DNA of 42,379 bases. It comes from Escherichia phage aldrigsur. Location of the stretch: sequence record MN850592.1; one strand, 5' to 3'. The notes under the pieces are model-generated. The model saw only the letters and a list, made by a program, of their open reading frames with translations. It ran no database searches and was not told where the DNA came from. Positions 1 to 35,831 of this stretch are shown here, one piece after another. Made by a program: the position numbers and the translations under genes. Each line of letters starts with the position of its first letter. Within the stretch, counting starts at the first letter, position 1.

Positions 1-1942
1 CGGCGATAGCGCGACCGATACGGTCGGGGGCTACGTCAGCAGGCAAGCCGAGCATAGACTGAACAGTTTGGCCTCTCGGTGCGATAAGCACAGAGCCGGG
101 GCTGAATGTGGTTTCACCGACGCGCAGGACACGGTTGGCCAGCTTCGCAGATGCGAGTGCTTCCATACCATCCTTCGTCACGTTCGGGTTCTTGAGGACT
201 ACAGCTTGCAGCTCCTCGCGGTACGCAGCAGACACCTCCGACATTTCCTGCGCGGCAGTAATGTCACCAGATGCAACGCGTGCTTGGAACAGGTTCTGCT
301 GAGTATCTGAGAACAGACCAGCCAGACCCTGCCAAGTGCGAGAGAGGAAGCCCTGAGCCTCCAGCCCATTCACCACAGAGTTAACGTCAGATTGACGCTG
401 CGTGAGGATTTGAGATTTCTGTGCCGGGGTCAAGCCAGCGTAGTCCTGCTGCTGCTTGATGTAACCCTGACCAGCTTGGTCGATGGTGCGGCCAGCCTTA
501 ATCTGCTCGCGCATGTACACCATCTTCTCTTGGTTTTCTTCTGACAGACCTGACAGGAGCTTAGTCCATGCAGTCTTGTCACCCTGATTCTCGGCCACGG
601 TTACGCGGTCAATCAGCCCGGTTACGGTACGGGCAGCGTCAGGGTTCATTTCGTCAACAGTGCCGAAGTTCGACAGAGACGGCTCAATCAACTTGGCGGC
701 AGACTTGTACGCAGAGGGGAAGCCAGTCTGCGCACCCACTTGCAGCAGGTCGAATGCCACGGAACTTGCCGTCGCGCCCGGTTGCTTCATACGGGCCTTG
801 ATGAATGCGTCAGCACCATCCTGCTCACTCGCGCCCTGCTGGAGCATGTACGTCTGGTTCCCGGTGGCGTAAGCCTGACCGAGCTGGCTGGCCTTGGCTT
901 GCTTGGCGTAATCCTTGTAGAAGGACTCGATAGCGGAGCTGAAACCACCAGCGCTAATCAGCTTATTGTCCACCATCTGCTGGAGCGTCTGCGTGTACTG
1001 TTCCGGCGTAACGTCACCGAATACTGCCTGACGCGCATCAAGTTGACCCTTCTGCGCCAGCAGACCCATGTTGTCCTGCACCTCGGTACGAGACTTGGAT
1101 TCACGAATCTGACCTTGCAGCTTGGCTAAGTCGTCGGCAGGCAGCTCGTTGAACAGCCCGGAGTTCACAGCAGTCTCGACCGGGGTGCGCAAATCCTGCT
1201 GGAGCATCAGCCCCATCATGGAAGTCACCTGCGTCCGGCGAGTCTCCAGCGGCAGCTTGTCATCTGCCAGAATAGACTTGGCCCACGCCATGGTCGCAGC
1301 CGTAGCGTTAGCGTACGCGCCGCCATCACCAGTGGCCTTGGCCTGAGCCGCCAGAGTAACGAGAGTGTTACCCTGCGTGTTGTACATCGCCGCACGCTGC
1401 TCAACCAGATACTTGCCATGCTGGGCAGCCTGCGTACGGATAAGGGTGTTGCTGAACGTGAGCTGGTTCTCCAGCAGAGACTTACGCCCGTTCAGCGTCA
1501 TACCATCAGTGTTCTCGAACAGGCCAGTGGTCTTCTCGTCCACCACCTTCAAGAACTCGTCGGGTGCCATCTTCGCATACTGCGGCATGTTAGCCGAGAT
1601 GTCTGAGGCGACCTTCGCCATTTCCATTCGTTTGTACTGGTCGTTGTAACCAGCTTTCTGGAACTGAGCGGTAAGCCAGTTCGAATCCAAATCCTCGACA
1701 GCCTTGCCACTCGCGGCGGCGTTAGCCCCCTTTAGGTATTCTTCCTCGTTCGCACGCTCAGTGACACGGCCAGCAAGTGCGCTGGCCATGTTCAGTACGC
1801 GTTGAATGGACTCGGTAGGAAACGTGTCGATGCGAGTATCGCGGCCTGCGAGACTAAACGGAGTCTGCGCCTGCTGCACACTTGGTAATCCCTGCTGCGC
1901 AGCATTAAGGTTAGCGCCACGCTGGTCACGCATAGTAGCCAT
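1..1942 (-). CDS. Internal virion (core/ejection) protein B-like, N-terminal ~647 codons; gene runs off the window start
   Basis: ATG at 1942-1940 (minus) immediately after the TAA of the upstream gene; hand translation of the minus strand is open down to position 1; absent from ORF track only because no stop lies inside the window; position after tail tubular B and the small internal virion protein matches T7/phiKMV-like order. Confidence 0.65.
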   Translation of the reverse strand, partial: MATMRDQRGANLNAAQQGLPSVQQAQTPFSLAGRDTRIDTFPTESIQRVLNMASALAGRVTERANEEEYLKGANAAASGKAVEDLDSNWLTAQFQKAGYNDQYKRMEMAKVASDISANMPQYAKMAPDEFLKVVDEKTTGLFENTDGMTLNGRKSLLENQLTFSNTLIRTQAAQHGKYLVEQRAAMYNTQGNTLVTLAAQAKATGDGGAYANATAATMAWAKSILADDKLPLETRRTQVTSMMGLMLQQDLRTPVETAVNSGLFNELPADDLAKLQGQIRESKSRTEVQDNMGLLAQKGQLDARQAVFGDVTPEQYTQTLQQMVDNKLISAGGFSSAIESFYKDYAKQAKASQLGQAYATGNQTYMLQQGASEQDGADAFIKARMKQPGATASSVAFDLLQVGAQTGFPSAYKSAAKLIEPSLSNFGTVDEMNPDAARTVTGLIDRVTVAENQGDKTAWTKLLSGLSEENQEKMVYMREQIKAGRTIDQAGQGYIKQQQDYAGLTPAQKSQILTQRQSDVNSVVNGLEAQGFLSRTWQGLAGLFSDTQQNLFQARVASGDITAAQEMSEVSAAYREELQAVVLKNPNVTKDGMEALASAKLANRVLRVGETTFSPGSVLIAPRGQTVQSMLGLPADVAPDRIGRAIA

Positions 1943-9556: not shown

Positions 9557-9817
9557 TTAGCTCCCAATGCCGAGGTTACTTGCCACACCAGTTCCGGTGC
9601 GACGGCGGCGACCACCCAGCGTATCAGAGGCCGAGCTTACTTGGCCACCTGCCTGAATGGTTGGGGTGTTCTCACCAGCGAGGTCGGCTGCAAGGTTAGC
9701 CTGCATCGTTTCTGCCTTCACCTGCGCCGGGTCAGTCTTGATAGTGTACTGAGGCTTTTGGCTACCCAGCCCGAAGACCGAGCCAATGCCCTTGAATACT
9801 TTGCCTACGCTACCCAT
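9557..9817 (-). CDS. Hypothetical Gly-rich small protein (possible virion protein), 86 aa
   Basis: ORF tightly packed upstream of portal. Confidence 0.45.
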   Translation of the reverse strand: MGSVGKVFKGIGSVFGLGSQKPQYTIKTDPAQVKAETMQANLAADLAGENTPTIQAGGQVSSASDTLGGRRRRTGTGVASNLGIGS

Positions 9818-10236
9818 TACGGTTTCTCCAAATCAATGAAGCGGTACTCCTGAACGTAAGGCCGCACCATATGGGAGTAACCGCACCAACGCACACCCTC
9901 TGAACGGGCCACGTCTTTGAGTACACGGAGGATGGCACGCATCACTCCACGGTTTCTGTACGGGGGCCAGACGTATGAGGCCATAACGACCACCATCTCG
10001 CCCACATGAATATCGAATAACCTGCCGATGTGTGCAACGGCCATGAGGCTGTCGTCATCGTCAGTGATGTAAACGTCAACACAACCGGAGGCGGTGGCCT
10101 CGTACATGCTGTCAACAATCACATCGGGAGATAAGTCTGACCATGGCCGCTCGGCTTGAATGCCTTCGGCCACAGCACGGCGAATGTCGAGTGGCATTGT
10201 CGTGTGTGATGTATTTCCCATAGTAGACACTTTCAT
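9817..10236 (-). CDS. Hypothetical protein, possibly GNAT-like acetyltransferase, 139 aa
   Basis: ATG at 10236 with GGGAGAG SD; weak R-x-x-G motif (YRNRGVMRAIL); function uncertain. Confidence 0.45.
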   Translation of the reverse strand: MKVSTMGNTSHTTMPLDIRRAVAEGIQAERPWSDLSPDVIVDSMYEATASGCVDVYITDDDDSLMAVAHIGRLFDIHVGEMVVVMASYVWPPYRNRGVMRAILRVLKDVARSEGVRWCGYSHMVRPYVQEYRFIDLEKP

Positions 10237-10250
10237 ACCGACAACTCTCC

Positions 10251-10490: not shown

Positions 10491-10526
10491 GGTAGCGTGA
10501 TACATATCACTATAGACACTTTCATA
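10491..10526 (-). promoter_or_regulatory. Composite conserved element (19-bp box TATGAAAGTGTCTATAGTG followed by palindrome TGATAcaTATCA) in the RNAP-downstream intergenic region; candidate phage promoter/operator
   Basis: Near-identical composite found in inverted orientation at 31190..31226; 19-bp box also at 24533..24551 and 10219..10237. Confidence 0.35.
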
Positions 10527-10553: not shown

Positions 10554-12986
10554 TCAGCAGAAAAACTTGCTTGATTGTTTCACAAGCTGGATGTCCAGAT
10601 TGCCACGTTCAGGTGGAACAGCATTGTATCTTACCGCAAGTTGTTGAATTGGGTCATGTTGCTCATACATCTGTACGAACTTTTCACGAATGACCTTATG
10701 CAGCAGACCAGCATGTGCCGCCGCAACACCGAACGAGTCATGGATGGATACCATGTACACCCCGTTATTCCACATCTCCCACAGCACCTTCATCATGTGG
10801 CTGGCATCCATGGCGTGTACGAAATTCGGAGCAATCGCAGCCGCACACTTCCGGCTATCCGGCTTGTCCAGATACTCGCGCAGCTTAATGCTGTGGATAC
10901 CCATGAGGTTGATGTTGTTGAGCATCGTCTCCTTGCTGGCTTGGTACAGGTTAACCACCCGCAACCCTGACGGCGCAATGATTTCTACGTACTCCCCGTT
11001 GGCTGCCGCCTCAACCGCGATAGCCTGCAACCATGCCATCAGCTCAGCCGCCTTCGGCACAACACGAGGGATTGCATTCCACATGAACTCTGCGATGAAC
11101 TGCGCACACTCCAGCAGGCTCTTGCCGTCCGGCAGCTTGACCCTGTTCTCACGCAGGTACAGGCAGTAGTAGTCAACCATACCGTGCCGGGTTGCCCCGT
11201 ACACGTAGGTCATCACTGGCTTCTTGGCCATAGCCCGAACGATGCCGATGCTAACAAGCCACGTACCCATCTGCGTCGGCGCTGTCGTCTCACTTTCTTC
11301 AAGAGCCTGCATTGCCGCTGCTGCCGTCTTGAGGTAAATGTCTGCCTTACGTCCGATGCTATTGATAAGATTGACAGCAGCACCGCCAACTTCATCTCGT
11401 AGCATGGCCGACAGGTGTTGTAGTCCTGAACATGTAGCGTCCCATTGTGTAACCACTCGGCAGGGATAAGTCTCAGGACTTCCTGAGTCGATAGCTCGAA
11501 TGAGTTCAACAGATGCAGCCCACGCGCTGACAGGGCTATCGGCCTCTGACCAGAACGAATCAAATGCCTCTGGAAGACGGCACGCCTCACGTAGTCGGGG
11601 GAGTGTTTTGTCCGTCCACGCTGCCCGGTCTTCGAAGTCTGTTGCGTCGTAGCCGAAGCAATTCGCAACATGTACCTTGAGCCAGAACAGCCCCTCACTT
11701 CCGAGAGCCACTGGTTCAGCAAGTTCGAGCAGCGCTCGCACTGCGTCGATGGACTGAGGGTTAAGGGTCGAAGAATAATAAATTCGGCCCCGTGTATCAG
11801 CGTAGGTCGGGAGGTATACCCTGTCATAATGCGCATAGCGCTCTGCCTCTTTGACTGCACCATTCAGCGCCAGCATCTGCGACGTGAACTTACGCAACTC
11901 ATTGTAATACAAGCGAGTCTTAACCTTGTACTCATGAGCCTCGGCATCCATCTGCTGCTGCATCTCTGGTGGGAACTTGCTGATGTACTGCGCGAAGCTG
12001 ACACCAGCCGGGATGGTGAATGGGAGCTTAGGCTCACGAGGCGGCACAGGCAGCCCCATAACGCCTGTACGGTTCGTTCTCAGGAACTCCAGTACCATTG
12101 GGTTAATTCGGTACGGAACGCTGCTGAGCATCATACACGGCTCTATAACAGGGGTCGGGTCAACGTTCAATGCACGATACCCTTTGTGGTTCATGCGACT
12201 CATTACCCGGTACATCGCCGCCTGCCCATCCGAGTGCCACATACCGCTGCGACCGTTCGGTGCAATCTGCTTCGGCGGGATAATCAACGGTGGGCAGCAC
12301 ATGCCATCAGCACGCGGCATGTCCAGCCAGTCGTTCATCGTAGCCAGCACATCCTCATGCAGTGCGAAGTGTGCCGTACCGCGCTGACGTTGGTTGCCGC
12401 CGACGCGAATCGTAGCCACCAACCCAGTTGGCTCCACGCACTTCATCATCAGCTTACCAATGGTAATCAGAGCACGCTGTGGCAGCACGTCAATCTCTAC
12501 CCCAACGTTCGCCGCCGACGCACGAGCTTTGTTGTAGACGTGGTTGGCCGACTTCGACCGGGACTTCTTAACGTCCTGCTTCACGCGCTCCATGTACGCT
12601 GCCTGCTGTGGCCCGGTCTGCTTCGCCCGGAGATACACCACCTCAGCCATCAGCGCTTTACCCATACTCTTGAGCAGACTCAGTACCGCCTGCTCCGACG
12701 CAGCACCGGACACCGCCATGCTCAATGCAAGAGAAGCACACGCCTTGGTGCCAATCTCACGCATGTACGTCCGGTACTGCGCACCGTACCCACGGGTCGT
12801 TTCGTTCAGGGTTTCTTGCATCGCAGCTTCGACAAGAGGATACGCCTCTACCATCATACGCTGGAGCAACGGCACCGACCCGGCCCGGCCACTGGCCATG
12901 GCTTCTTTGATATTGTCCAGCCAGCCCTCGCGGTGTCTGGCTCGTGCTTCTTCTTCAAGTCGAATCTGCTCAGCAAGTAAGTCCAC
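10554..12986 (-). CDS. Single-subunit DNA-dependent RNA polymerase (T7 gp1-like), 810 aa
   Basis: Recognisable T7 RNAP motifs: CSGLQHLSAMLRDEVGG (T7 CSGIQHFSAMLRDEVGG), FVHAMDASH, SIHDSFG. Confidence 0.95.
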   Translation of the reverse strand: MDLLAEQIRLEEEARARHREGWLDNIKEAMASGRAGSVPLLQRMMVEAYPLVEAAMQETLNETTRGYGAQYRTYMREIGTKACASLALSMAVSGAASEQAVLSLLKSMGKALMAEVVYLRAKQTGPQQAAYMERVKQDVKKSRSKSANHVYNKARASAANVGVEIDVLPQRALITIGKLMMKCVEPTGLVATIRVGGNQRQRGTAHFALHEDVLATMNDWLDMPRADGMCCPPLIIPPKQIAPNGRSGMWHSDGQAAMYRVMSRMNHKGYRALNVDPTPVIEPCMMLSSVPYRINPMVLEFLRTNRTGVMGLPVPPREPKLPFTIPAGVSFAQYISKFPPEMQQQMDAEAHEYKVKTRLYYNELRKFTSQMLALNGAVKEAERYAHYDRVYLPTYADTRGRIYYSSTLNPQSIDAVRALLELAEPVALGSEGLFWLKVHVANCFGYDATDFEDRAAWTDKTLPRLREACRLPEAFDSFWSEADSPVSAWAASVELIRAIDSGSPETYPCRVVTQWDATCSGLQHLSAMLRDEVGGAAVNLINSIGRKADIYLKTAAAAMQALEESETTAPTQMGTWLVSIGIVRAMAKKPVMTYVYGATRHGMVDYYCLYLRENRVKLPDGKSLLECAQFIAEFMWNAIPRVVPKAAELMAWLQAIAVEAAANGEYVEIIAPSGLRVVNLYQASKETMLNNINLMGIHSIKLREYLDKPDSRKCAAAIAPNFVHAMDASHMMKVLWEMWNNGVYMVSIHDSFGVAAAHAGLLHKVIREKFVQMYEQHDPIQQLAVRYNAVPPERGNLDIQLVKQSSKFFC

Positions 12987-18082: not shown

Positions 18083-20544
18083 AATGCGATACCCTTACTC
18101 GTCAGGAATTGTCTCTTAAACTCCAGCACTTCATCGGCTGTCGTCTCTACGTGGTGCTTCTCGTACATGCTTGGCCCTGCTTCCACCTCTGCCGGGAACG
18201 GCACTGTCAGGTTATACTCTGGCCATACGTGGTTATAGTATTCCGGGATGCTCTCCATGATTGCCTTGAGTCCAACGAAGAACTCGTGAGGGCAGTCAGG
18301 TGCAATGTCGAAATAGAATGCGTCATGCACTTGGTTGATGGGAACCACACGCCCACCAAAGAAGTCATTCGATAGCAGCCAGCGGAACAGCAAGCCACCG
18401 ATTCCCTGTACCCAAAATGCTGTCTCACCCTGAATGGGATAGTTACGCATCTGAGTTGGTTTGTATTCCATCAGGTGAGCACGCGCCGCCTTGTTCCATT
18501 TCTCGTACTGACGGAATGAATAACAAGTTCCACCCGGCGAACGGAAGTGACCACGGCGATACACCTGCCACCGCCCGTTCTCGTCCTGCTCCTTGAATAC
18601 ATTGCTCTGTCCACTTTTCTCTACGGCAGGGAAGATAACCGCGTCGAACCATTCTTCAACTTCCGGGAACAGACCCTTCTCGTTGTCGATGAACGCCTGC
18701 GCTTCTTCCTCTGAGCAACCAGTCGAGTAAGCAATACCTCGCGCTGTTGCACCGTACTGGTATGAGAACGCCTTCGGCTTAATGTCAGTACGCATCTGAC
18801 TGTACCGTGCATGGTCAGGATGGGATTCATCCTTGCACTTCTTAAGCACGTCCTCGTACGGCTCGTTGAGCTGAGCTGACAATCGCATACAGTGCATGTC
18901 GATACCATCGAGCAATGCACGAATCAGGTTCTTATCCTTACTGAACCCGGCCAGCCCCACCACTTCCAGTGCCGAGTAGTCAGCTTCAACGATGCGGCCA
19001 CCTTCACCAAAGCGGGAGGTGAACATCTGCTTAACCTTACTCGTACCTTTACGTGGCAAGTTCTGGCTGTTCGGTCGCGCCGAAGATAAGCGCGTCGTCT
19101 CGGTCGCGGTCATGTTGATGGTGTGGTGTACGATACTGTCCGGCTGGATGAACTGCATCATCCCCGACTGGCCAGTCACGTTACCTTCTTCATCGAACGT
19201 CTCGCTGAGGTAGTAGGTGCCGAGGTCTTTCTGTGCCTTGGCCCGGTCAGCAATCTCCACCACGCCGGGAATCTTACGAGCTGCCAGAATGTCCAGCACC
19301 TCACCCGCCGTACTGAATACCGGGGAACCATCGGCCAGCCTACGCTTACCTACCCAATCACCTGTGCGCCGGAGATACTCGCCCGGCTTCTTCGGGTCTT
19401 CCCATTCGAGGTTGTCTGCAATCTCCTTCGCTCGTTTATCCTGCACACGCAGAAGCCCCGGCATACGGAACAGCACCTCACCCCACTTGGTATCCACCTC
19501 GTCGGTAGCCAGCTTCTCAAACTTCGGCTCGCCCTTGTGCTTGCCGCTGGTGTAGATAGTCTGGTGTACCTTCTCAACCGGGTCGTACCACAACCCAGTC
19601 TCGTCATCCCACTCACACTCGCTGGTATGCTTGAGCCACTTGTCCTTGCCTCGCTTGAACAGTGGTGCATCCACCTTCACGTAAATGAGATTGCCCTCGG
19701 CATCCCGGCGCTCGACTCGCGCCTTGTACTTCATCACACCACCGAACACGAAGGCGCTCATGTGATAAGCTGACGTGAACTTGAATTGCTCACGCGCTTC
19801 CTTCGGCATGTCGGCTGGCAGGTAACTCAGCAGCGTTTCAGTCAGCCCACTGATTGCATCCTGTAACTCGCGACGGTTGCGCTCGGCTACCTCGCGGTCA
19901 ACATGCAGACCAGCGTGCATCATGTACGCCCACATGAGCATACCTTCGAAGCGGGTCAGTGCCATCGGCAACATGCCCTGCTTTGTCAGTTCAGCCCACT
20001 GACCAACGAACAGCTTGGTCGTGTTCTCAATATCCCCGGACGGCCCGGACAGATACTCGCTCAGCAGCTCAGGGTCAATCTGGCTGGTCAGGTAGCCTGA
20101 CTCCCACATTGCCTTGACTGCATCCACCTTGTGAGTACCACCATACTTCGGTGCTGTCTCGTTCAAGGATGGGTACTGGGATTGCTGATGCGTCAGCAGG
20201 TACTCAGCATACGCGGTACAGAATACACGGCCACCTCGTTTGAGGAAGGCAATGAACTCGTCACCGTAATGCTCGAACCACCAGCTCAATTCATACGGCG
20301 CGTTGTGAGCTACCAGAATGTTCGTGTCAGGATGCAGGTGCAGACTCTTGTTCTGCAACCAGTCCTCACGAGAACTGTACCGATACTCCTCGCGCTCGTA
20401 GAATACCCAGCCATCCTTGGTCAGCACACAGTCACGCTGGCCCTGCATAACCACATAGTTATCCGGGCAGCGCGGCGATGCCAGCTCCCCATACCACTCA
20501 TGGTTCTCAGTCTCAACGTCGATTACCTGTGCTCTTATTGCCAT
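18079..20544 (-). CDS. Family A DNA polymerase with N-terminal 3'-5' exonuclease (T7 gp5-like), 821 aa
   Basis: Motif A region VEADYSALEVVGLA, motif C NQVHDAFYFD, Exo I-like VIDVETEN. Confidence 0.9.
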   Translation of the reverse strand: MAIRAQVIDVETENHEWYGELASPRCPDNYVVMQGQRDCVLTKDGWVFYEREEYRYSSREDWLQNKSLHLHPDTNILVAHNAPYELSWWFEHYGDEFIAFLKRGGRVFCTAYAEYLLTHQQSQYPSLNETAPKYGGTHKVDAVKAMWESGYLTSQIDPELLSEYLSGPSGDIENTTKLFVGQWAELTKQGMLPMALTRFEGMLMWAYMMHAGLHVDREVAERNRRELQDAISGLTETLLSYLPADMPKEAREQFKFTSAYHMSAFVFGGVMKYKARVERRDAEGNLIYVKVDAPLFKRGKDKWLKHTSECEWDDETGLWYDPVEKVHQTIYTSGKHKGEPKFEKLATDEVDTKWGEVLFRMPGLLRVQDKRAKEIADNLEWEDPKKPGEYLRRTGDWVGKRRLADGSPVFSTAGEVLDILAARKIPGVVEIADRAKAQKDLGTYYLSETFDEEGNVTGQSGMMQFIQPDSIVHHTINMTATETTRLSSARPNSQNLPRKGTSKVKQMFTSRFGEGGRIVEADYSALEVVGLAGFSKDKNLIRALLDGIDMHCMRLSAQLNEPYEDVLKKCKDESHPDHARYSQMRTDIKPKAFSYQYGATARGIAYSTGCSEEEAQAFIDNEKGLFPEVEEWFDAVIFPAVEKSGQSNVFKEQDENGRWQVYRRGHFRSPGGTCYSFRQYEKWNKAARAHLMEYKPTQMRNYPIQGETAFWVQGIGGLLFRWLLSNDFFGGRVVPINQVHDAFYFDIAPDCPHEFFVGLKAIMESIPEYYNHVWPEYNLTVPFPAEVEAGPSMYEKHHVETTADEVLEFKRQFLTSKGIAL

Positions 20545-24532: not shown

Positions 24533-24551
24533 CAATATAGACACCTTCATA
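24533..24551 (-). promoter_or_regulatory. Copy of 19-bp conserved box (TATGAAGGTGTCTATATTG), 20 nt upstream of the 24513 start; candidate promoter
   Basis: 17/19 match to boxes at 10508..10526 and 31190..31208; preceded by hairpin 24552..24576. Confidence 0.3.
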
Positions 24552-29861: not shown

Positions 29862-30254
29862 TTACGCCTCCACTACCCAAAATTGTTCACCATCGTAAGT
29901 CCAAGCGGTGTGCTGCCCGGCTTCCATTTCGGCCTCTGTCTTGCTGACGAACTTGCCAGCAGGCTTGCCCGGATATGGTGAATCCATGAAGATTGCATCA
30001 TCATCTTTGGTCACTACCATGATGCAGTCCTGTTCGAATGCTTTACAGAACAGCTTAACAGCCTGCCTGATTTCGTAGATTCCATCGACAGGAAAGACCA
30101 TGCTTAACTCGTACGCATTGTCGAACTTGCCTGTCAGTGTGACCGGAACCACTCCGAACATATCCTGCACCGTTCGCAGTGCCTTGCAATGAAGCGCCAG
30201 ATTAACACATTCAGCGTTGCCCTGACGATATGCGCTTGCATAGATACGGTACAT
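29862..30254 (-). CDS. First early gene, hypothetical protein, 130 aa
   Basis: First ORF downstream of the tandem promoters; GGAGA SD. Confidence 0.55.
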   Translation of the reverse strand: MYRIYASAYRQGNAECVNLALHCKALRTVQDMFGVVPVTLTGKFDNAYELSMVFPVDGIYEIRQAVKLFCKAFEQDCIMVVTKDDDAIFMDSPYPGKPAGKFVSKTEAEMEAGQHTAWTYDGEQFWVVEA

Positions 30255-30711
30255 AGTTATTTCTCCAGTTGTTGGCTATTTTCAGGTGGATAGTGAACCC
30301 ATTGTGACGCGCCGTACATGTTGCACTAAGTGGCATTGATTGGCTTGTCGGATTCACTACCCTGAAAAATCGCCCCGCCCATTTCGCGCCGTGGATATTG
30401 TCTGCATCCACTCTCAGGAGTCCTCCAGCAGTCCGGCTCACCGTTACCAGCTTGCCTACCTACCCGCTTCACTCCGCGCCTTATAAGACGTTTGGGATTT
30501 TACTGATACTGCGCTGTGTCTATCGCGCTTCTCCGTTCCCTTGCATCAGGCACTACCCCTACGGCGTTAGCATTGTTGCGATACCGTTGCTTTTCAGCGA
30601 TGCCTCTCACCAGTTCCTAGCTGCGCCGGATACCCATGAGACCGTGACACTACGTGGCCAGTTTACGTTCACTCAGAGCAGGTTGTTTTGCAACCTTTCA
30701 ACTCGGTGCTG

Positions 30712-30740
30712 ATTACATCACATCGTATTCAGCGTGTCAA
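30712..30740 (-). promoter_or_regulatory. Sigma70-type early promoter A (TTGACA-17-TGTAAT)
   Basis: Minus strand: -35 TTGACA at 30740..30735, 17-nt spacer, -10 TGTAAT at 30717..30712. Confidence 0.55.
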
Positions 30741-30791
30741 CTACTTTTTACTTCTGACTGACTGGCTTGCTGCCCTGTCAATCTGGTGTGC

Positions 30792-30820
30792 ATTACAGCA
30801 TACTCATTTCATCCTGTCAA
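30792..30820 (-). promoter_or_regulatory. Sigma70-type early promoter B (TTGACA-17-TGTAAT)
   Basis: -35 at 30820..30815, -10 at 30797..30792; shares TATGCTGTAATGC context with promoter C. Confidence 0.55.
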
Positions 30821-30928
30821 CCGATTTAATCAGCGCCCGTTCTGAGATAATTAAACCGTACCAGTTCGCCTACGTGTGTTTTAACGTCTTTATCAATGAC
30901 TGTTTAGCTTGCTGGCTGACGTGGAAGC

Positions 30929-30957
30929 ATTACAGCATAGTGAGCTTGCCTTGTCAA
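30929..30957 (-). promoter_or_regulatory. Sigma70-type early promoter C (TTGACA-17-TGTAAT)
   Basis: -35 at 30957..30952, -10 at 30934..30929. Confidence 0.55.
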
Positions 30958-31034
30958 CACACCAGATTGTTAAAGAGCAGTGTTACCGTCCTACACCGTC
31001 CAACACGTTGACGCTGTGTTGTCCGGCGAGATGA

Positions 31035-31063
31035 ATTACAGCAAATAGCGAATACCTTTGCAA
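31035..31063 (-). promoter_or_regulatory. Sigma70-type early promoter D (TTGCAA-17-TGTAAT)
   Basis: -35 TTGCAA at 31063..31058, -10 at 31040..31035; weaker -35. Confidence 0.4.
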
Positions 31064-31189
31064 GTATTATTTTCAAGAAATGTGATAAGTGTATGTAATC
31101 ATTAGGATTAAAGTTTGATTAGATAATCATAACACTGGATAGAATACCGTTATCAGATAGGTTATAAGTTACTGTAATCATTAGATAAT

Positions 31190-31226
31190 TATGAAAGTGT
31201 CTATAGTGATATAGTATCGCTAGATA
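31190..31226 (+). promoter_or_regulatory. Inverted copy of the composite element (TATGAAAGTGTCTATAGTG + TGATAtagTATC palindrome) at the boundary of the AT-rich and T-depleted regions
   Basis: Same composite as minus-strand 10491..10526, here on plus strand. Confidence 0.35.
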
Positions 31227-31230
31227 CGCA

Positions 31231-31620
31231 GAGCGAGCGCGGCGCAGCCGAAACAAGCGAGCGCCGAACGGATGACGGATGGCAGACCGTAGGACTGACA
31301 GACGGCAGACAGTGAAGGCAGTAGGACAGTAACAGCAGGTAGCAGAGCATGACGCGCAGAGCTGGCAGGCGCAGACAGTAGACCAGCACACCACACAGCA
31401 CCACGCCGCACACCGCTACACACCAGCACCACGAAAAGAGACAGATACCCGCACGACCACGCGCAGCACACAGCACCACACAGCCAGCGCAGAGCGTCCC
31501 CAATAGGACAGCACCACACCGCCACCGATAGCCCACACAGCAGGCACACAGCCAGCCAGCAGGACAGCACCACGCGGCGAGTGATGAAACGCGACACGCA
31601 CGAGCTATACCGCACGCAGG
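31231..31620. repeat. Strand-asymmetric block (plus strand ~5% T) with degenerate short repeats (ACAGCACCAC x4, GACAG-type); candidate terminal-repeat/packaging region
   Basis: Composition counted directly; lies between last late gene (stop 31810) and early promoters, where genome ends of T7-like phages map. Confidence 0.4.
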
Positions 31621-31809
31621 CAATCCTCTTGACGCGCCGCGCAACGCACGCGAGACAATATCGCGCACGTCGCGAGGCTAATCCGCGCACACGTCATGGG
31701 GGTACGCGCGGTCATTTGGGTCGAGGGAGGGGCAACCATAAACATGCAATTTTCAAGCCGGGGGTATTGCTCCACACGGCCTGTTCAATGCTCCAGCTTT
31801 CGATAGCCC

Positions 31810-32346
31810 CTACAGCGTCGCACAGTAGTCGCTACAGCGTTTTGCACGAGCTACCAAGGCATCCCTATACCGAACGATTGTCGGGGCTGTAGAAGCCTTT
31901 AGGAACGCAATACGAAGGTCACAGATGGCTGCTGCTGCGGAGTGAGGTTCCAGACGTTTGGCTGCTGCCACGGTAGCAGGGCCAATAACCCCGTCCTGTG
32001 CAACACCGCATACCCGCTGTAGAGCTTTCGCCGCACGGGAGACACCTGAGTTAACGCCGTAGTCGAACACGGCACATGCAATCGCAGGGTGAAGCTCGTC
32101 ACCTCGGATGGGGCTGTAGTAGTCCCGTCGATAGATAGCTTCGGCTTGTGCTTTGGTGAGGTCGCGGATAGGCACACAAATAGTGCCGCCAAGCCCAGTA
32201 GGGACACCGCAAGCTCTACCATCCAGCTTTCCATCACGAGCGTCACTAATTCCATGATTCGTTTCCCCTCCGGTGTCGCCGGGCAGGTTGGCGTAACCGC
32301 CTTCTGCCAGCCCGGTGAACCGCATACAGATTTCAAAGTTAGTCAT
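31810..32346 (-). CDS. Endolysin, GH108-type lysozyme with C-terminal peptidoglycan-binding domain, 178 aa
   Basis: N-terminal AEGGYANLPGDTGGETNHGI (GH108 EGGY..GGETN.GI signature) and C-terminal DGVIGPATVAAAKR (PG_binding_3-like); no signal or SAR segment. Confidence 0.75.
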   Translation of the reverse strand: MTNFEICMRFTGLAEGGYANLPGDTGGETNHGISDARDGKLDGRACGVPTGLGGTICVPIRDLTKAQAEAIYRRDYYSPIRGDELHPAIACAVFDYGVNSGVSRAAKALQRVCGVAQDGVIGPATVAAAKRLEPHSAAAAICDLRIAFLKASTAPTIVRYRDALVARAKRCSDYCATL

Positions 32347-33402: not shown

Positions 33403-34071
33403 TTAAGAGAGGGTGATGCCAGTGATAACGCCACCAGCGACAGTGAAGGTTACAGTGTCGGTGTAAGTGCCAGTCACCGGAACCTGTAGTGCAGCGGCGT
33501 TAGCCACAGCAGCGATAGTTGCAGGGAAGGTGCCGTACGAGATTACCCCGTTGGACACAGTAAACGTGGCGTTGGCGATAGCCGTACCCGCAGAGTTGCG
33601 GATTTGGATACCGTTACCGCTGGAGATACAGGCCACCGTCGCCGGGAGCCGGGCTGCCAGCAGCACGCCGTTGGTGTTCACGAAGGAAGTGGACGTAATG
33701 CCAGCGGCACCGTTCACGTTCTGCACAGAGATTGAATCACCGTTGGACTTCATACCGACAGTCACCGGGAATCGAATCTGATAAGTAGAGCCATCAACCT
33801 CAACCGTACCCGACTTGGACACAGTGCCGTCTTGGTTCACTACAGTCGCTGTAGCGCCGTCTGCGACGATTACTGAGCCTTCCGGTACGGAACTATACCC
33901 AGCCGCTTCCAACGCTGTCATGAGCTGCTGGATGGCCGTGTCGATGTCAGCAGCCTGAGCTGCCGTGATAGTGGTCGTGTTGTTCACGAAACGCTGCGTA
34001 AGGTTCGCAGCAATGTTGGCGCGGTAGCCGATGTCATACCGCTGTTGGTCAGTGATGGAAATCAAGGACAT
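33403..34071 (-). CDS. Hypothetical Gly/Thr/Ala/Val-rich protein (beta-rich, fibre/adhesin-like), 222 aa
   Basis: Start overlaps terminase stop (TAATG); composition suggests beta-sandwich/fibre-like fold. Confidence 0.5.
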   Translation of the reverse strand: MSLISITDQQRYDIGYRANIAANLTQRFVNNTTTITAAQAADIDTAIQQLMTALEAAGYSSVPEGSVIVADGATATVVNQDGTVSKSGTVEVDGSTYQIRFPVTVGMKSNGDSISVQNVNGAAGITSTSFVNTNGVLLAARLPATVACISSGNGIQIRNSAGTAIANATFTVSNGVISYGTFPATIAAVANAAALQVPVTGTYTDTVTFTVAGGVITGITLS

Positions 34072-35831
34072 TAACGTAGTCTCCGTCGCACGCCGCGCAC
34101 AGGCTTATGGCTGCGCCACTTCGAGTCGTCGTAACCCATGGGGTTGGCAAGGAACTCTTGTGCAGCAGCAGTCTCGCGCTTGGCAGCTTCTTCATGTTCG
34201 TCCTGCTGTAGCACCTCAGCGTGCAGGTACACGGCAGCAGATAGGGTTTCAATACGGTCATCATGAGGGATTGATTGACGGTCTTGGGTCAGGTTCTGGA
34301 GCTGCCAGAACAGACTGAACTCGCGACCACCGTTATTCATCCCCCGGCACAGCCGCAGGTCTTCTTCAACAACGCACCAATGCACAACGACACGGTGGCG
34401 CTGCATGATTGGGCCGAGGCGGTTGATGATACGCACCTCTTTCTGGCCGGACGAGTACACGCCTTCGCAGCCAATGGTCGAGCTCTGCCGCTTAATCTCA
34501 CCTCGGTACATGTTGGTCACGGTTCCGTGGCCCATGTTATCCTCAATGACCAGCCGTTTAACGCCGACCTCAGACAACCACTCTACCGCCGCCTTGATGT
34601 TCTCCTCCGTCTGGCCGCCGTGGTAGACGTGCATACCAATGACGTGGATAAACGGGCCGACAGAAGCTGTGGCGATGATAACTGATTCGTCCGACCCACC
34701 ACCAGCAGGGTCAAGAAACGCCGAGGTATTTTCGAATGGTACATACGTGTCCGAGAAGTCAGCAGCCAAGAATAGCTGAGCGCGAGCAAGTGGGAAATCC
34801 AGTGGCAGCTCGGCGGCATGGCGCGGGTGGTTCGACCAATGCAGAACCTCTGGCGCAGACTGCGTAGAGCCGTGGAAGAAGATTAAGTCTCTGAGATGTA
34901 ACGTTTGTTTGAGCGCATCAGACAGCGACGTGTCCAGCATGAACTGCAACTGGAAGCCTGCCTGCTGATAATCTCGTTCGTTCTGGAGCTGCTTCTCCTC
35001 AGAATAACGCTGAGGGTCAGTCTGAGCACCACGGTTCCCAAGGATACCGTAGCCAGTACGCAGTTCCGGGTGGCCTTCCATCTTCTGCTTAATCCACGGG
35101 GCCAGACAGCCGCCGTACCGTTCTTCTTCTTCCGGCGTAGGGAAACGACCGGGCCAGATACGAACGTCGAAGCCACGCTGCGGGAGCGTGTTATAGATGG
35201 AGTCCTGAGTCTGCGGGGTGCCGAGGTACAGAATCTCTGCACCATCGTTGGCGATAGCCGCGAACTCTTTGGTCAGGGTGTTGATACGGGCGCGGTTGGC
35301 AGGAGAGCTACCGTTACTGGTAGTCTCCACGTCATCGGCAATCAACAGCGATACGTGGTTCCCCTGCAACTGGCCGAAGATACCGACCGCTTTTACAGAG
35401 GGCTGTTTGTCAGGGATACGGAACGCGTGATGCACGTCAAAGCCGTCAGTGTATGACGTACGTGCGCCAGCGCGAGTCTCCGGGCGCAGCCATTCAAGTC
35501 TGTCCCATTGCATGATGGCAGACACGATAGCGTGCGAGAGCGTGCCAGCATAGTCATCCGAACCGGAGACCAGCAGCACAGTGGCGTTCGGCATCTGCAC
35601 AAATTCGTACAGAGCACGGGCAATGCCGATGGTGGACTTAGCCTCACCACGCTGCGCCATGACGCACTTGTTCTTGAGCGTCCTGTCGGCCATGTAGCGG
35701 CCAATGTCGAGCTGCATTTCAGTGAGGTCAAAGCCCAGCCATGCGAAGTAGTCATGCAGGAACAGCGGGAAGTTGTTCTCGTAGTGAGCGCGAACGATTC
35801 CTGCCATCACCATGCGGCGTTGTAAATCCAT
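34071..35831 (-). CDS. Terminase large subunit (T7 gp19-like), 586 aa
   Basis: Size close to T7 gp19; position after small terminase subunit and tail fibre. Confidence 0.8.
   Translation of the reverse strand: MDLQRRMVMAGIVRAHYENNFPLFLHDYFAWLGFDLTEMQLDIGRYMADRTLKNKCVMAQRGEAKSTIGIARALYEFVQMPNATVLLVSGSDDYAGTLSHAIVSAIMQWDRLEWLRPETRAGARTSYTDGFDVHHAFRIPDKQPSVKAVGIFGQLQGNHVSLLIADDVETTSNGSSPANRARINTLTKEFAAIANDGAEILYLGTPQTQDSIYNTLPQRGFDVRIWPGRFPTPEEEERYGGCLAPWIKQKMEGHPELRTGYGILGNRGAQTDPQRYSEEKQLQNERDYQQAGFQLQFMLDTSLSDALKQTLHLRDLIFFHGSTQSAPEVLHWSNHPRHAAELPLDFPLARAQLFLAADFSDTYVPFENTSAFLDPAGGGSDESVIIATASVGPFIHVIGMHVYHGGQTEENIKAAVEWLSEVGVKRLVIEDNMGHGTVTNMYRGEIKRQSSTIGCEGVYSSGQKEVRIINRLGPIMQRHRVVVHWCVVEEDLRLCRGMNNGGREFSLFWQLQNLTQDRQSIPHDDRIETLSAAVYLHAEVLQQDEHEEAAKRETAAAQEFLANPMGYDDSKWRSHKPVRGVRRRLR

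Follow-up and report, generated by a model that had tools for sequence, protein, structure and literature searches.

A T-depleted tract at the predicted genome end of Escherichia phage aldrigsur and the almost U-free antisense RNA it probably encodes

Why should a phage genome hold a tract of nearly 400 nucleotides in which one strand has almost lost one of its four bases? The window analysed here is the whole 42,379-nucleotide sequence of Escherichia phage aldrigsur (MN850592.1), in which the plus strand of positions 31231-31620 contains 135 C, 124 A, 111 G and 20 T, or 5.1% T in 390 nt. A first-pass annotation of the sequence had counted about 21 T against roughly 20% elsewhere, and the contrast is confirmed: across all 390-nt windows of the genome T averages 22.9% (SD 2.9), which places the block at a z-score of about -6. 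The lowest T content outside the block is 16.2%, making this the strongest base depletion of the genome. The four longest T-free runs in the genome (52, 50, 47 and 37 nt) all lie within it, and the AT skew reaches 0.654 at 31201-31600, compared with at most |0.37| elsewhere. The depleted tract is longer than the block first reported, with about 5% T from 31226 to ~31620 and a weaker depletion that continues to 31724. All genes are on the minus strand, and on this gene-sense strand A is lowered while T and G are raised. A search of the open-access literature turned up no earlier account of the asymmetry. The explanation proposed here, which is considered somewhat more probable than its alternatives taken together, is a non-coding left-end leader from which an antisense phage promoter would direct the synthesis of an almost U-free RNA.

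Protein coding is the reading adopted in several database records. Two minus-strand ORFs of 155-156 aa are found here, and a 'hypothetical protein' CDS is annotated at this place in four records (Kc261, forsur, HHU8 and ROV85); that the block encodes a protein is nevertheless almost certainly wrong. A strand without A has no possible stop codon, so that such ORFs arise automatically: all three frames are open and the two long ORFs overlap in different frames. Their products are of low complexity (Cys/Leu/Val/Ala/Ser/Arg) and have no match in Pfam or PHROG, and the infecting genome offers no promoter upstream of them. Of 121 indels, only 18 have a length divisible by three, and the remaining 85% break the frame, even in comparison with a 96%-identical relative. 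The first-pass view that coding does not explain the asymmetry therefore stands. A search of 30600-32000 with Rfam covariance models likewise gave 0 matches at E ≤ 1.

The genome end and its landmarks

The sequence is that of a whole Bonnellvirus genome in circular permutation. It shares 96% identity with phage altidsur and 84-96% with Bonnellvirus genomes, in keeping with the phiKMV-like phage supposed at first pass. The block also lies where it had been placed, between the last late gene, an endolysin gene, and the early promoters (Table 1) of a unidirectional genome that has a gene for a single-subunit RNA polymerase, and the large terminase is of the T7 type (Pfam Terminase-T7_RNaseH-like, E = 5e-24). 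The record of J8-65 (KM247287) carries identical 259-bp repeats at both ends, with TCGACCC as its first bases. Homology to this one record with annotated ends maps the left terminus of the present genome to 31724 and a single repeat copy to ~31458-31724, the repeat being present only once because the assembly collapsed its two copies. Excess read depth at the non-coding ends has been reported for this phage cluster (10.1101/2020.01.19.911818). BHUENT7 was rejected as a second, separate witness to the repeat boundary: the 121-bp overlap of its ends was introduced by the assembler, and its circular record is unverified.

With the terminus and the repeat placed in this way by homology to J8-65, the block divides into 163 bp of predicted repeat and ~227 bp of unique leader. 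The earlier proposal that the block sits at the genome terminus, in a direct terminal repeat, is thus supported as to the place and only in part as to the repeat, which is predicted to take in only ~163 of its 390 bp. The comparison with the termini of related phiKMV-like genomes, suggested at the same time, does bring the terminus to this locus through J8-65, at a point 104 bp outside the block.

Table 1. Coordinates, strand and basis of the features discussed
Feature	Position	Strand	Basis or remark
RNA polymerase gene	10554-12986	-	Pfam RNA_pol, E = 8e-83
Promoter motif, gene-sense, 3 mismatches	10219-10237	-	overlaps start codon of ORF 9817-10236
Promoter motif, gene-sense, 0 mismatches	10508-10526	-	28 nt past stop of RNA polymerase gene
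Promoter motif, gene-sense, 2 mismatches	24533-24551	-	intergenic
S-adenosylmethionine lyase (anti-restriction), first early gene	29862-30254	-	Pfam S-AdoMet_lyase, E = 1e-27; annotation of relatives
Four sigma-70-like early promoters, TTG(A/C)(C/A)A-N17-TGTAAT	31063-31035, 30957-30929, 30820-30792, 30740-30712	-	kept in relatives
AT-rich segment, leader to first early promoter	31064-31189	.	two 30-nt direct repeats
Antisense copy of putative phage RNA-polymerase promoter motif TATGAAAGTGTCTATAGTG	31190-31208	+	predicted start ~31206
Predicted leftward (antisense) non-coding transcription unit, promoter to left terminus	31209-31724	+	transcription inferred from LUZ19
Unique post-repeat leader spacer with ACTGTCTGC-type short repeats	31220-31433	-	
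Reported T-depleted core (A-depleted on gene-sense strand)	31231-31620		same depletion at same place in 13 related genomes
Five copies of GTGGTGCTG (starts 31396, 31424, 31471, 31509, 31565)	31396-31573	-	straddle repeat boundary; P ~ 0.001
TATCTGTCTCTTTT, candidate pause/termination signal for rightward phage RNA polymerase	31434-31447	-	11 nt past predicted inner repeat edge
Predicted direct terminal repeat, ~267 bp	31458-31724	-	aligns to 259-bp repeat of J8-65; inner boundary +/- ~15 nt
Two ~19-nt direct copies (TGCGCG-N9-CGCG) in repeat; possible protein-binding site	31649-31689	-	repeat_region in altidsur; conserved in close relatives
CCCCCAT motif, 23-29 nt from predicted terminus	31696-31702	-	same motif near the termini of seven other phages
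Terminus motif CCTCCC/TCGACC, predicted left-end cut between 31725 and 31724	31719-31730	-	invariant in 13/13 genomes, unique in genome
GGCTTGAAAATTG, in 85-nt spacer from endolysin stop to terminus; candidate packaging signal	31747-31759	-	invariant in 13/13 genomes, unique in genome
Endolysin, last late gene	31810-32346	-	Pfam Glyco_hydro_108 (GH108), E = 2e-22; endolysin in annotation of relatives

The landmarks of an Autographiviridae (T7-type) left end are found at this position. The sequence starting with TCGACC at the predicted cut corresponds to base 1 of the J8-65 record, TCGACCC being present at 31724 and CCCCCAT at +23. A start with TC... is common to J8-65, T7, SP6, phiKMV, LKA1 and JG068, and CCCCC(A/G)T occurs 23-30 nt from the termini of the same six phages and of KP34; the latter has the C-run, but its genome begins with CC.... 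Read in the gene-sense direction, the endolysin stop is followed by an 85-nt spacer, the cut CCTCCC/TCGACCC, the ~267-bp repeat and TATCTGTCTCTTTT, and then by a spacer of ~215 nt, the opposite-strand promoter copy, the AT-rich segment and the host-type early promoters. The region is very likely the terminus, terminal repeat and leader of the genome.

The element at the inner edge of the repeat resembles a known transcription signal. TATCTGTCTCTTTT is unique in the genome, with 0 copies expected by chance, and all 13 genomes carry the form TATCT(G/A)TCT(C/T)TTTT unchanged, as an island (TATCTRTCTYTTTT) amid indel-rich DNA. ATCTGT(T) stands at the repeat boundary in T7 (nt 161), SP6 (nt 173) and JG068 (nt 216); K1-5, with an unverified repeat boundary, has it at nt 234. 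The position agrees here too, the element starting 11 nt beyond the predicted boundary and running into T-rich CTCTTTT. The strict heptamer ATCTGTT, preceded by A, C or T, is absent from this place: the genome reads T-ATCTGTC (TATCTGTC, with C at position 7) and J8-65 reads T-ATCTATC. For T7 polymerase, any change in ATCTGTT abolishes termination. The class II signal HATCTGTT sits at the T7 concatemer junction, where pausing of the polymerase recruits the terminase (PMC3276506). The cognate polymerase in Bonnellvirus is an enzyme other than T7 polymerase. No T7-lysozyme (amidase) gene was seen in the gene annotations of relatives or in the part of the genome inspected, and for this reason the T7 pausing mechanism may not transfer to these phages.

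A putative phage promoter aimed at the terminus

At the inner edge of the leader lies a copy of a putative promoter motif for the phage RNA polymerase. Four copies with at most 3 mismatches in 19 positions are present in the genome, compared with ~0.01 expected by chance: two directly after the RNA polymerase gene, one intergenic and one antisense. The antisense copy agrees with the gene-sense site at 10526-10508 without a mismatch over 19-23 nt and is the sole copy on the plus strand; it stands 18 nt ahead of the T-free tract and is oriented toward the terminus. J8-65, LIMEzero and LKA1 each carry exactly one antisense copy, again at the inner edge of the leader, and motif positions that vary from genome to genome change in step with the sense copies of the same genome. 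In LIMEzero the antisense copy matches the annotated phage promoters. Sense copies at 10237 here and at 19870 and 5664 in J8-65 coincide with ORF start codons, an odd location for a promoter. Repeats of the 12-mer TGTAATCATTAG were also considered as a phage promoter and set aside, since they are unique to one spot and do not occur at the gene-sense sites. The Bonnellvirus motif, as read from its sequence and distribution, is a putative promoter.

Experimental evidence comes from the genus Phikmvvirus. In LUZ19 the transcription start of the antisense promoter P001 has been mapped, with transcripts that reach the genome end and pass over it, and 15 other Phikmvvirus species keep the P001 motif (PMC10914365). 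phiKMV has the published P001 motif at 730->711 on the bottom strand, and its A-poor tract reaches ~70 nt upstream of P001. LUZ19 is so far the only phage in which such an antisense promoter has been mapped by experiment; it appears to be shared by at least four genera. T7, SP6 and KP34, used as negative controls, have neither an antisense copy at the leader nor a strong extended A-poor leader. This comparison of antisense promoter with leader skew takes in five positive and three negative genomes and ignores their kinship.

The depletion tracks the interval between the antisense promoter and the terminus, not the terminal repeat. In each genome compared, this promoter-to-terminus interval is the most base-depleted one. 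In the present genome, the RNA predicted from 31209-31724 would consist of 29.7% A, 33.5% C, 28.5% G and 8.3% U, and among 167,456 windows of the same length, with any base considered, only eight are as depleted, all at this locus. Since the depletion spans the interval from promoter to terminus, the interval probably encodes an almost U-free antisense RNA. An antisense transcription unit at 31209-31724 is regarded as probable. The first-pass annotation had named transcription of the block as part of a gene as evidence against its reading; no sign of such a gene was found here, but a non-coding antisense transcript, a possibility not raised at first pass, probably does arise from the block.

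The predicted RNA has unusual properties. Its leftward transcript folds with a minimum free energy of -60 to -67 kcal/mol per 300 nt, compared with a background of -101 +/- 12 (z = +3.2), and is the least structured of those sampled. In relatives the same quantity is high in LIMEzero (z = +3.6) and weak in J8-65 (z = +2.0) and LKA1 (z = +1.0). The difference in free energy between the RNA:DNA hybrid and the DNA duplex falls in the top 0.4% of the genome and in the top 0.01-1% across the genomes compared, ranking 11 in LIMEzero and 8 in LKA1 of ~85,000 windows each, although in this genome and in J8-65 the effect amounts to only ~2.2-2.6 SD. Selection of the U depletion for properties of the antisense RNA or its hybrid is a tentative suggestion, somewhat short of an even chance. 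Avoiding U-runs alone would prevent termination, and the near-total depletion of U is thus not fully explained.

In the mechanism proposed, the phage RNA polymerase would start at ~31206 in mid to late infection and transcribe toward the genome end, and on concatemers this leftward transcription would carry on across the junction. Both the firing of the promoter and the passage of transcripts over the genome end are experimental in LUZ19 and are extended to this phage by analogy. The product would be a non-coding RNA with ~8% U, and the missing U would leave no termination or pause signals in the leftward direction, an RNA almost unable to fold and an unusually stable hybrid with the template. 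Rightward read-through from the late genes would be halted, in the manner of the T7 concatemer junction, by TATCTGTCTCTTTT at the repeat's inner edge. The depletion may then serve to insulate the early genes from late read-through, to open the repeat as an R-loop, or both, and such an R-loop over the repeat might be used in replication or in the joining and processing of concatemers. A broader proposal is rather unlikely as it stands: that phiKMV-like leaders (Bonnellvirus, Waewaevirus, Stubburvirus and Phikmvvirus) are dedicated templates for an almost U-free RNA made by the phage polymerase from the conserved antisense promoter, the U depletion being selected so that the RNA would neither fold nor terminate and would persist as an R-loop over the terminal repeat, which would prime left-end replication or expose the other strand for concatemer pairing or packaging processing.

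Selection, repeats and mutation as possible sources of the skew

The depletion could also have been selected at the level of DNA, independently of transcription. The leader enters the cell first, and it may be kept free of signals and protected until the SAM lyase is expressed, by exclusion of sigma-70 -10 elements in both orientations, start and stop codons, Dam sites, Type I sites and A/T-containing palindromic restriction sites. The leader is indeed promoter-free, it contains 0 EcoKI, EcoBI and GATC sites, the first early gene encodes the SAM lyase, and the depleted tract stops where the AT-rich promoter region starts. GATC, however, is missing from the whole genome and not from the leader alone, and ordinary windows show no significant excess of AT-containing 6-mer palindromes over the leader. 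GC-only palindromes show no avoidance either (25 observed, 19 expected), and restriction evasion through their avoidance was discarded as a candidate on this ground. T7 and SP6 share the problem of entry and yet lack a strong skew, and the start of the tract at the antisense promoter in five genomes is left unaccounted for. Selection of this kind is considered unlikely.

Short repeats suggest a neutral origin, in which slippage and duplication of short A-free motifs would amplify a founder composition in the manner of a satellite. CAGCACCAC occurs five times in the block (at 31396, 31424, 31471, 31509 and 31565), and GCAGACAGT-type repeats are found in its low-coordinate half. The 10-mer ACAGCACCAC is present in four copies, as the first-pass annotation had stated, at spacings of 75, 38 and 56 nt in place of the 50-65 nt given there. 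Recurrence exceeds what the skewed composition would produce (P ~ 0.001 in 1000 dinucleotide shuffles), the copy number of GTGGTGCTG ranges from 0 to 5 among relatives, leader indels come in units of ~10-11 nt, 54% of the alignment columns in the leader are variable, and other genera have different short repeats at the same place. Residual A residues show no significant helical phasing in any of 13 genomes. Repeat expansion is still quite unlikely to be the cause: four genera that share no nucleotide similarity have unrelated motifs, every one of them free of A on the same strand, and the non-repetitive stretches are depleted as well, with the depletion stopping at the promoter and at the terminus. 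Moreover, substitutions continue to avoid A. Polarised per-site substitutions in the leader number 28/447 to A and 48/344 to T (p = 0.0004), and the flank shows no difference; these rates replace raw counts of C/T versus A/G polymorphisms, which were dropped because they are confounded by composition.

The direction of the skew could in principle be the footprint of mutation, left by deamination of a strand that is often single-stranded during replication, resection or transcription. The rise of T and G and the loss of A on the gene-sense strand correspond to C-to-T and A-to-G changes. C deaminates far faster than A, however, and C is not lowered on this strand (28.7% in the leader, 26.4% genome-wide), while T, G and C have taken the place of A in approximately equal shares. 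Leftward transcription would expose a non-template strand that should gain T, yet this strand is T-poor. Such a footprint is highly improbable.

Alternatively, the skew may prevent the terminal repeat from folding when single-stranded, which would help the complementary 3' tails of replicated genomes to anneal efficiently into concatemers. Both strands of the core fold less well (-54.6 and -44.4 kcal/mol) than sequences of the same G+C in which A equals T (-76 +/- 4.5 kcal/mol). Their folding is nevertheless only ~1-2 SD below that of ordinary genome windows, a lower G+C content would be a simpler route to the same result, and the unique post-repeat spacer, which lies outside the annealing repeat, is equally or more depleted. 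A role in annealing is therefore very unlikely to account for the depletion.

Further candidates were rejected. A cluster of Chi sites guarding the ends does not exist, as the leader contains no Chi and one 7/8 match, and all eight genomic Chi sites lie elsewhere. The T-poor strand is not a primase-site-free lagging-strand template, since it has five GTC, several of them within ~60 nt of the terminus; the equivalent region of T7 has many top-strand GAC triplets, which are GTC on the other strand. Alternating purine-pyrimidine tracts are enriched in the leader (0.633, against 0.487 +/- 0.021) and also in J8-65, but not in phiKMV (0.476), and Z-DNA was dismissed as a general explanation. A survey of IMG/VR anchored on TerL is too noisy for quantitative claims because the contig ends are unknown; it did no more than confirm A-poor blocks in two distant contigs as well as in close relatives.

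An antisense unit with a U-poor product would turn a compositional oddity into a testable hypothesis, in which a non-coding RNA poor in U passes through the terminal repeat and over the concatemer junction. The insulation of early genes on concatemers, the duplication of the terminal repeat and the joining of ends are incompletely understood in the T7 family, and if the R-loop reading were true, it would offer a transcription-driven answer to the copying and joining of these genome ends. In practical terms, T/A depletion combined with CCTCCC/TCGACCC, CCCCC(A/G)T and TATCTGT provides a sequence-only terminus finder for permuted assemblies. The locus also exposes a recurrent false gene call, stop-free ORFs being listed as hypothetical proteins in several GenBank records, and the leader should be preserved when such phages are engineered or synthetically rebooted.

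Comparison with known systems

The closest counterpart, a direct homologue, is the left end of J8-65. Both left ends follow the endolysin gene, begin with TCGACCC preceded by CCTCCC, and carry CCCCC(A/G)T at +23, the TATCTRTCTYTTTT island just past the repeat, an A-poor leader of ~520 nt and the antisense promoter at its inner edge. They differ in sequence, with ~62% column identity across the leader and many indels, and in the repeat, which is 259 bp in J8-65 and ~267 bp as predicted here from one collapsed copy. The promoter motif of J8-65 is a variant that differs at four positions (GTAACTGTAG compared with GTGTCTATAG).

LUZ19 P001 is likewise a single antisense copy of a phage promoter left of the early region, aimed across the genome end, with sense copies directly downstream of the RNA polymerase gene. 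It belongs to another genus and has another motif (GgtTATGTCACacACAnnGG compared with TATGAAAGTGTCTATAGTG), and the Bonnellvirus copy is a putative promoter. The passages of the study consulted here make no mention of one-base depletion in the P001-transcribed leader (PMC10914365). The link between a P001-type promoter and a U-poor template, and its extension to Bonnellvirus, Waewaevirus and Stubburvirus, come from the present work.

At the T7 junction the repeat likewise has the last late gene on one side and the early promoters on the other. Also shared are an ATCTGT-type signal at the inner edge with a T-rich tail after it, lineage-specific short direct repeats beside the repeat, and a T7-type terminase. 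Here the signal reads TATCTGTC, where T7 has the strict HATCTGTT, and it begins not at the boundary but 11 nt beyond. T7 has no antisense phage promoter, as none of its 17 consensus sites is on the opposite strand; its leftward promoter, A0, is a host promoter, and its post-repeat array is G-poor, not A-poor.

R-loop primers are made by T7-like single-subunit RNA polymerases at the T7 primary origin and at mitochondrial LSP-CSB II. These known cases involve G-rich RNA, in contrast to the U-poor RNA with C > G predicted here. The likeness is functional only and derives from modelled properties: as in those systems, the template is strand-asymmetric, the hybrid would be more stable than the duplex, and the nascent RNA would remain unstructured.

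Base depletion and placement of the block

The tract at 31231-31620 (the block), which the first-pass annotation had described as strongly T-depleted, contains 135 C, 124 A, 111 G and 20 T on the plus strand. Base counting confirms the depletion, with 5.1% T against a mean of 22.9% (SD 2.9) over all 390-nt windows of the sequence, where the minimum away from the block locus is 16.2%. The four longest T-free runs in the window (52, 50, 47 and 37 nt) all lie at the block, and the AT skew of 31201-31600 is 0.654. CAGCACCAC occurs five times and ACAGCACCAC four times in the block, a recurrence above expectation from the skewed composition (P about 0.001); the four copies of ACAGCACCAC are as first described, but lie 75, 38 and 56 nt apart, not at the 50-65 nt given. 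No earlier description of the asymmetry was found in the open-access literature; accounts outside open access are possible.

The minus strand carries all genes of the window, so the block is A-depleted in the gene-sense orientation. The region is 84-96% identical to genomes of Bonnellvirus (Autographiviridae), including altidsur, mellemsur, J8-65 and Kc261. Nine relatives have contiguous sequence across the junction between the end and the start of the window, which indicates a complete, circularly permuted assembly with the terminal repeat collapsed to one copy. Homology to J8-65 and terminus landmarks bear out the suggested location at the genome terminus, and the block region is securely assigned to the left-end leader and concatemer-junction region of a T7-family genome. 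The Dam site GATC is absent from both strands of the 42.4-kb window (about 165 expected from length alone). The eight Chi octamers GCTGGTGG (952, 4321, 5165, 7105, 20285, 33438, 34706 and 36095) are all gene-sense (minus), with none on the plus strand; RecBCD recognises Chi in this orientation when it enters from the right end of the genome.

A strand devoid of A can form no stop codon. Each of the three minus-strand frames reads open across the block, with two overlapping ORFs of about 155 aa in different frames; both encode low-complexity products rich in Cys, Leu, Val and Ala. Pfam, PHROG and Rfam searches of the block region gave no match. Indels among relatives are multiples of three in only 18 of 121 cases, and those separating altidsur (96% identical) from the window measure 1, 10 and 11 nt. 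Protein coding is thus excluded, in keeping with the initial view that coding does not explain the asymmetry, and the leader CDSs of Kc261, forsur, HHU8 and ROV85 are stop-free composition artefacts.

Features of the window and annotated leader CDSs of relatives (L-numbers are handles of comparison sequences)
Feature	Sequence	Coordinates	Strand	Remark
S-adenosylmethionine lyase	window	29862-30254	minus	first early gene
Four sigma-70-like promoters, TTGACA-N17-TGTAAT	window	31063-30712	minus	
Putative promoter 19-mer TATGAAAGTGTCTATAGTG	window	31190-31208	plus	18 nt before T-free run, points into run; unbiased window search
TATCT(G/A)TCT(C/T)TTTT	window	31434-31447	minus	one occurrence in window, 11 nt past predicted repeat boundary
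GH108 endolysin	window	31810-32346	minus	flanks block
T7-type large terminase	window	34071-35831	minus	
Sense motif copy	window	10237 (10219-10237)	minus	3 mismatches
Sense motif copy	window	24551	minus	2 mismatches, intergenic
'Hypothetical protein' CDS in leader	Kc261 (L049)	877-1416		
'Hypothetical protein' CDS in leader	forsur (L051)	1030-1545		
'Hypothetical protein' CDS in leader	HHU8 (L054)	829-1377		
'Hypothetical protein' CDS in leader	ROV85 (L050)	988-1554		

Terminus, terminal repeat and junction signal

The linear J8-65 record carries the same 259-bp repeat at each end, and its first bases, TCGACCC, align to window position 31724 (minus strand). All 13 aligned genomes have CCTCCC|TCGACCC unchanged, even one whose endolysin is only 78% identical, and the window contains a single copy. 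The inner end of the repeat, placed by alignment to one homologous record, J8-65, falls at about 31458 (+/- 15 nt). On this alignment, the left terminus is predicted at 31724 and the single repeat copy would extend to about 31458. The block then consists of about 163 bp of repeat and about 227 bp of unique leader, with the genome end 104 bp outside it, so that its proposed identity as terminal repeat stands for the former portion and not for the latter.

Termini begin with TC... in J8-65, T7, SP6, phiKMV, LKA1 and JG068, KP34 being the exception (first 45 nt compared). In all seven, CCCCC(A/G)T lies 23-30 nt from the end, and the window carries CCCCCAT at +23 from the predicted terminus. Comparison with the termini of related phiKMV-like genomes, as proposed initially, thereby agrees with a terminus at 31724 on both landmarks. 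The publication that describes these phages reports excess read depth at the non-coding ends of the cluster (10.1101/2020.01.19.911818). Two direct copies of about 19 nt, TGCGCG-N9-CGCG, at 31649-31689 (minus), 36-76 nt from the predicted terminus, are annotated in altidsur as 'repeat_region' and are candidate terminase or end-binding sites. In the LIMEzero record (L058/L149), 40 nt precede the conserved terminus motif CCTCCC|TCGAC, and ORF56/57 are annotated between the endolysin and the other end of the record (42242-43032); its deposited ends probably differ from the physical termini.

The junction motif TATCT(G/A)TCT(C/T)TTTT is shared without exception by the 13 genomes, in DNA otherwise ridden with indels. 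Direct reading gives a repeat of 160 bp in T7 (ATCTGTT from base 161), 174 bp in SP6 (ATCTGTT at 173-179) and 216 bp in JG068 (ATCTGT at 216); these three carry the boundary comparison, K1-5 (ATCTGTT at nt 234) giving the motif position only. GAP227 (L065) has GGGTATCTGTAAA at about nt 220. The class II pause/termination signal of T7 RNA polymerase is ATCTGTT after A, C or T, with its natural copy at the T7 concatemer junction. Terminase is reportedly recruited by polymerase pausing at that site (PMC3276506). The TC..., CCCCC(A/G)T and ATCTGT(T) landmarks are useful for finding termini in permuted Autographiviridae assemblies.

Conservation of the depletion and the putative antisense promoter motif

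In all 13 Bonnellvirus-like genomes, A makes up 0-12% per 50 nt along a tract of 450-500 nt, which begins at the terminus or close to it and gives way abruptly to an AT-rich segment. In the leader (the non-coding repeat and unique spacer, about 31220-31724), 54% of alignment columns are variable and the depletion is nonetheless kept. Polarised substitutions to A (28/447) are half as frequent per available site as those to T (48/344; p = 0.0004), and the same test detects no bias against changes to A in the flank. Without any nucleotide similarity, phiKMV (nt 1 to about 800), LKA1 (nt 1-450) and LIMEzero (about nt 100-650) have the same kind of A-poor leader, which reaches from the terminus almost to the early promoters; in KP34 and SP6 it is less pronounced. 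In the GAP227 record, T is the scarce base (4-8%) over the first 150 nt of the gene-sense strand, opposite to the depleted base of phiKMV-like leaders. Over 31220-31724, alternating purine-pyrimidine steps are enriched (0.633 vs 0.487 +/- 0.021 in shuffles) and the homopolymer triplets GGG, CCC and TTT are 3-5-fold depleted; the J8-65 leader has alternating tracts such as TGTGCGCGTGCGCGTGCATG, and the phiKMV leader lacks this enrichment. Z-DNA, Chi clusters, primase-free templates, helical phasing and GC-palindrome avoidance were each tested as explanations and rejected.

The putative antisense promoter is an exact copy of a gene-sense site at 10526-10508, 28 nt after the RNA polymerase gene stop. 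The plus strand of the window holds no second copy, about 0.01 such matches being expected by chance. One antisense copy each also occurs at the leader inner edge in J8-65 (553->531), LIMEzero (655->635, matching the annotated phage-specific promoters of its record) and LKA1 (478->453); the motif varies by genome, and in these three the antisense copy tracks the sense copies of its own genome. phiKMV carries the motif of P001, an antisense phage-specific promoter of LUZ19, at 730->711 (bottom strand), in the inner portion of its A-poor leader. No antisense copy was found at the leader in T7 (17 sense, 0 antisense), SP6 or KP34. Across this set of five positive (window, J8-65, LIMEzero, LKA1, phiKMV) and three negative genomes, compared with kinship ignored, the promoter-to-terminus interval is the most base-depleted genome-wide in every positive one. 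Avoidance of signals or restriction at the DNA level, neutral repeat expansion, selection of low-structure single strands for annealing, and mutational footprints each explain less, and all four are silent on the start of the tract at an antisense promoter in five genomes. The best-supported explanation of the asymmetry is that the leader serves as template of a conserved antisense transcription unit.

Some sense copies of the motif lie at annotated or predicted ORF start codons (ATGAAAGT...), at 10219-10237 in the window and at 19870 and 5664 in J8-65 (L148); either ORF starts are mis-called or the putative promoter motif has a second role. Two 30-nt direct repeats (31076-31105 and 31155-31184, plus; 80% identical), within the AT-rich stretch that separates the putative antisense promoter from the first early promoter, share a core TGTAATCATTAG absent elsewhere in the window and may be a regulator-binding site. 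SP6 (L152) has a near-palindromic 18-mer, TTGTCTAACGTGTTGGAC, at at least seven sites including the left-end region (493-510, 6262, 7071, 8545, 9381, 14256 and 30567).

Predicted antisense RNA and comparison with known systems

The predicted leftward transcript (31209-31724) has a computed 8.3% U and 58% purine, and so U-poor an RNA cannot contain U-run terminators or class II signals. At -60 to -67 kcal/mol per 300 nt, against a background of -101 +/- 12 (z = +3.2), it has less self-structure than any other RNA sampled in the genome, although its G+C is higher; rightward RNA from leader DNA is structured above average. Leftward folding z is +3.6 in LIMEzero, +2.0 in J8-65 and +1.0 in LKA1. 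By nearest-neighbour parameters, the preference for RNA:DNA hybrid over DNA duplex falls in the top 0.4% in the window and the top 1.1% in J8-65, ranking 11 of 85,464 windows in LIMEzero and 8 of 82,586 in LKA1. As to the function of the predicted antisense unit, we infer two possibilities: antisense transcription may insulate early genes from late read-through on concatemers, as proposed for LUZ19, or a stable RNA:DNA hybrid over the repeat may aid end replication, concatemer joining or processing.

T7 differs in being G-poor at nt 150-450 rather than A-poor like the window leader. The Bonnellvirus junction motif resembles the T7 class II signal in sequence and in its position at the repeat edge; as it departs from the strict heptamer ATCTGTT, it is class II-like rather than a strict member of that class. 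In the transcriptome study of LUZ19, P001 was mapped in antisense orientation at the left of the early region; its transcripts reach and cross the genome end, and 15 other Phikmvvirus species conserve its motif (PMC10914365). The window motif, a putative promoter, is likewise single, antisense, left of the early region and aimed at the genome end.
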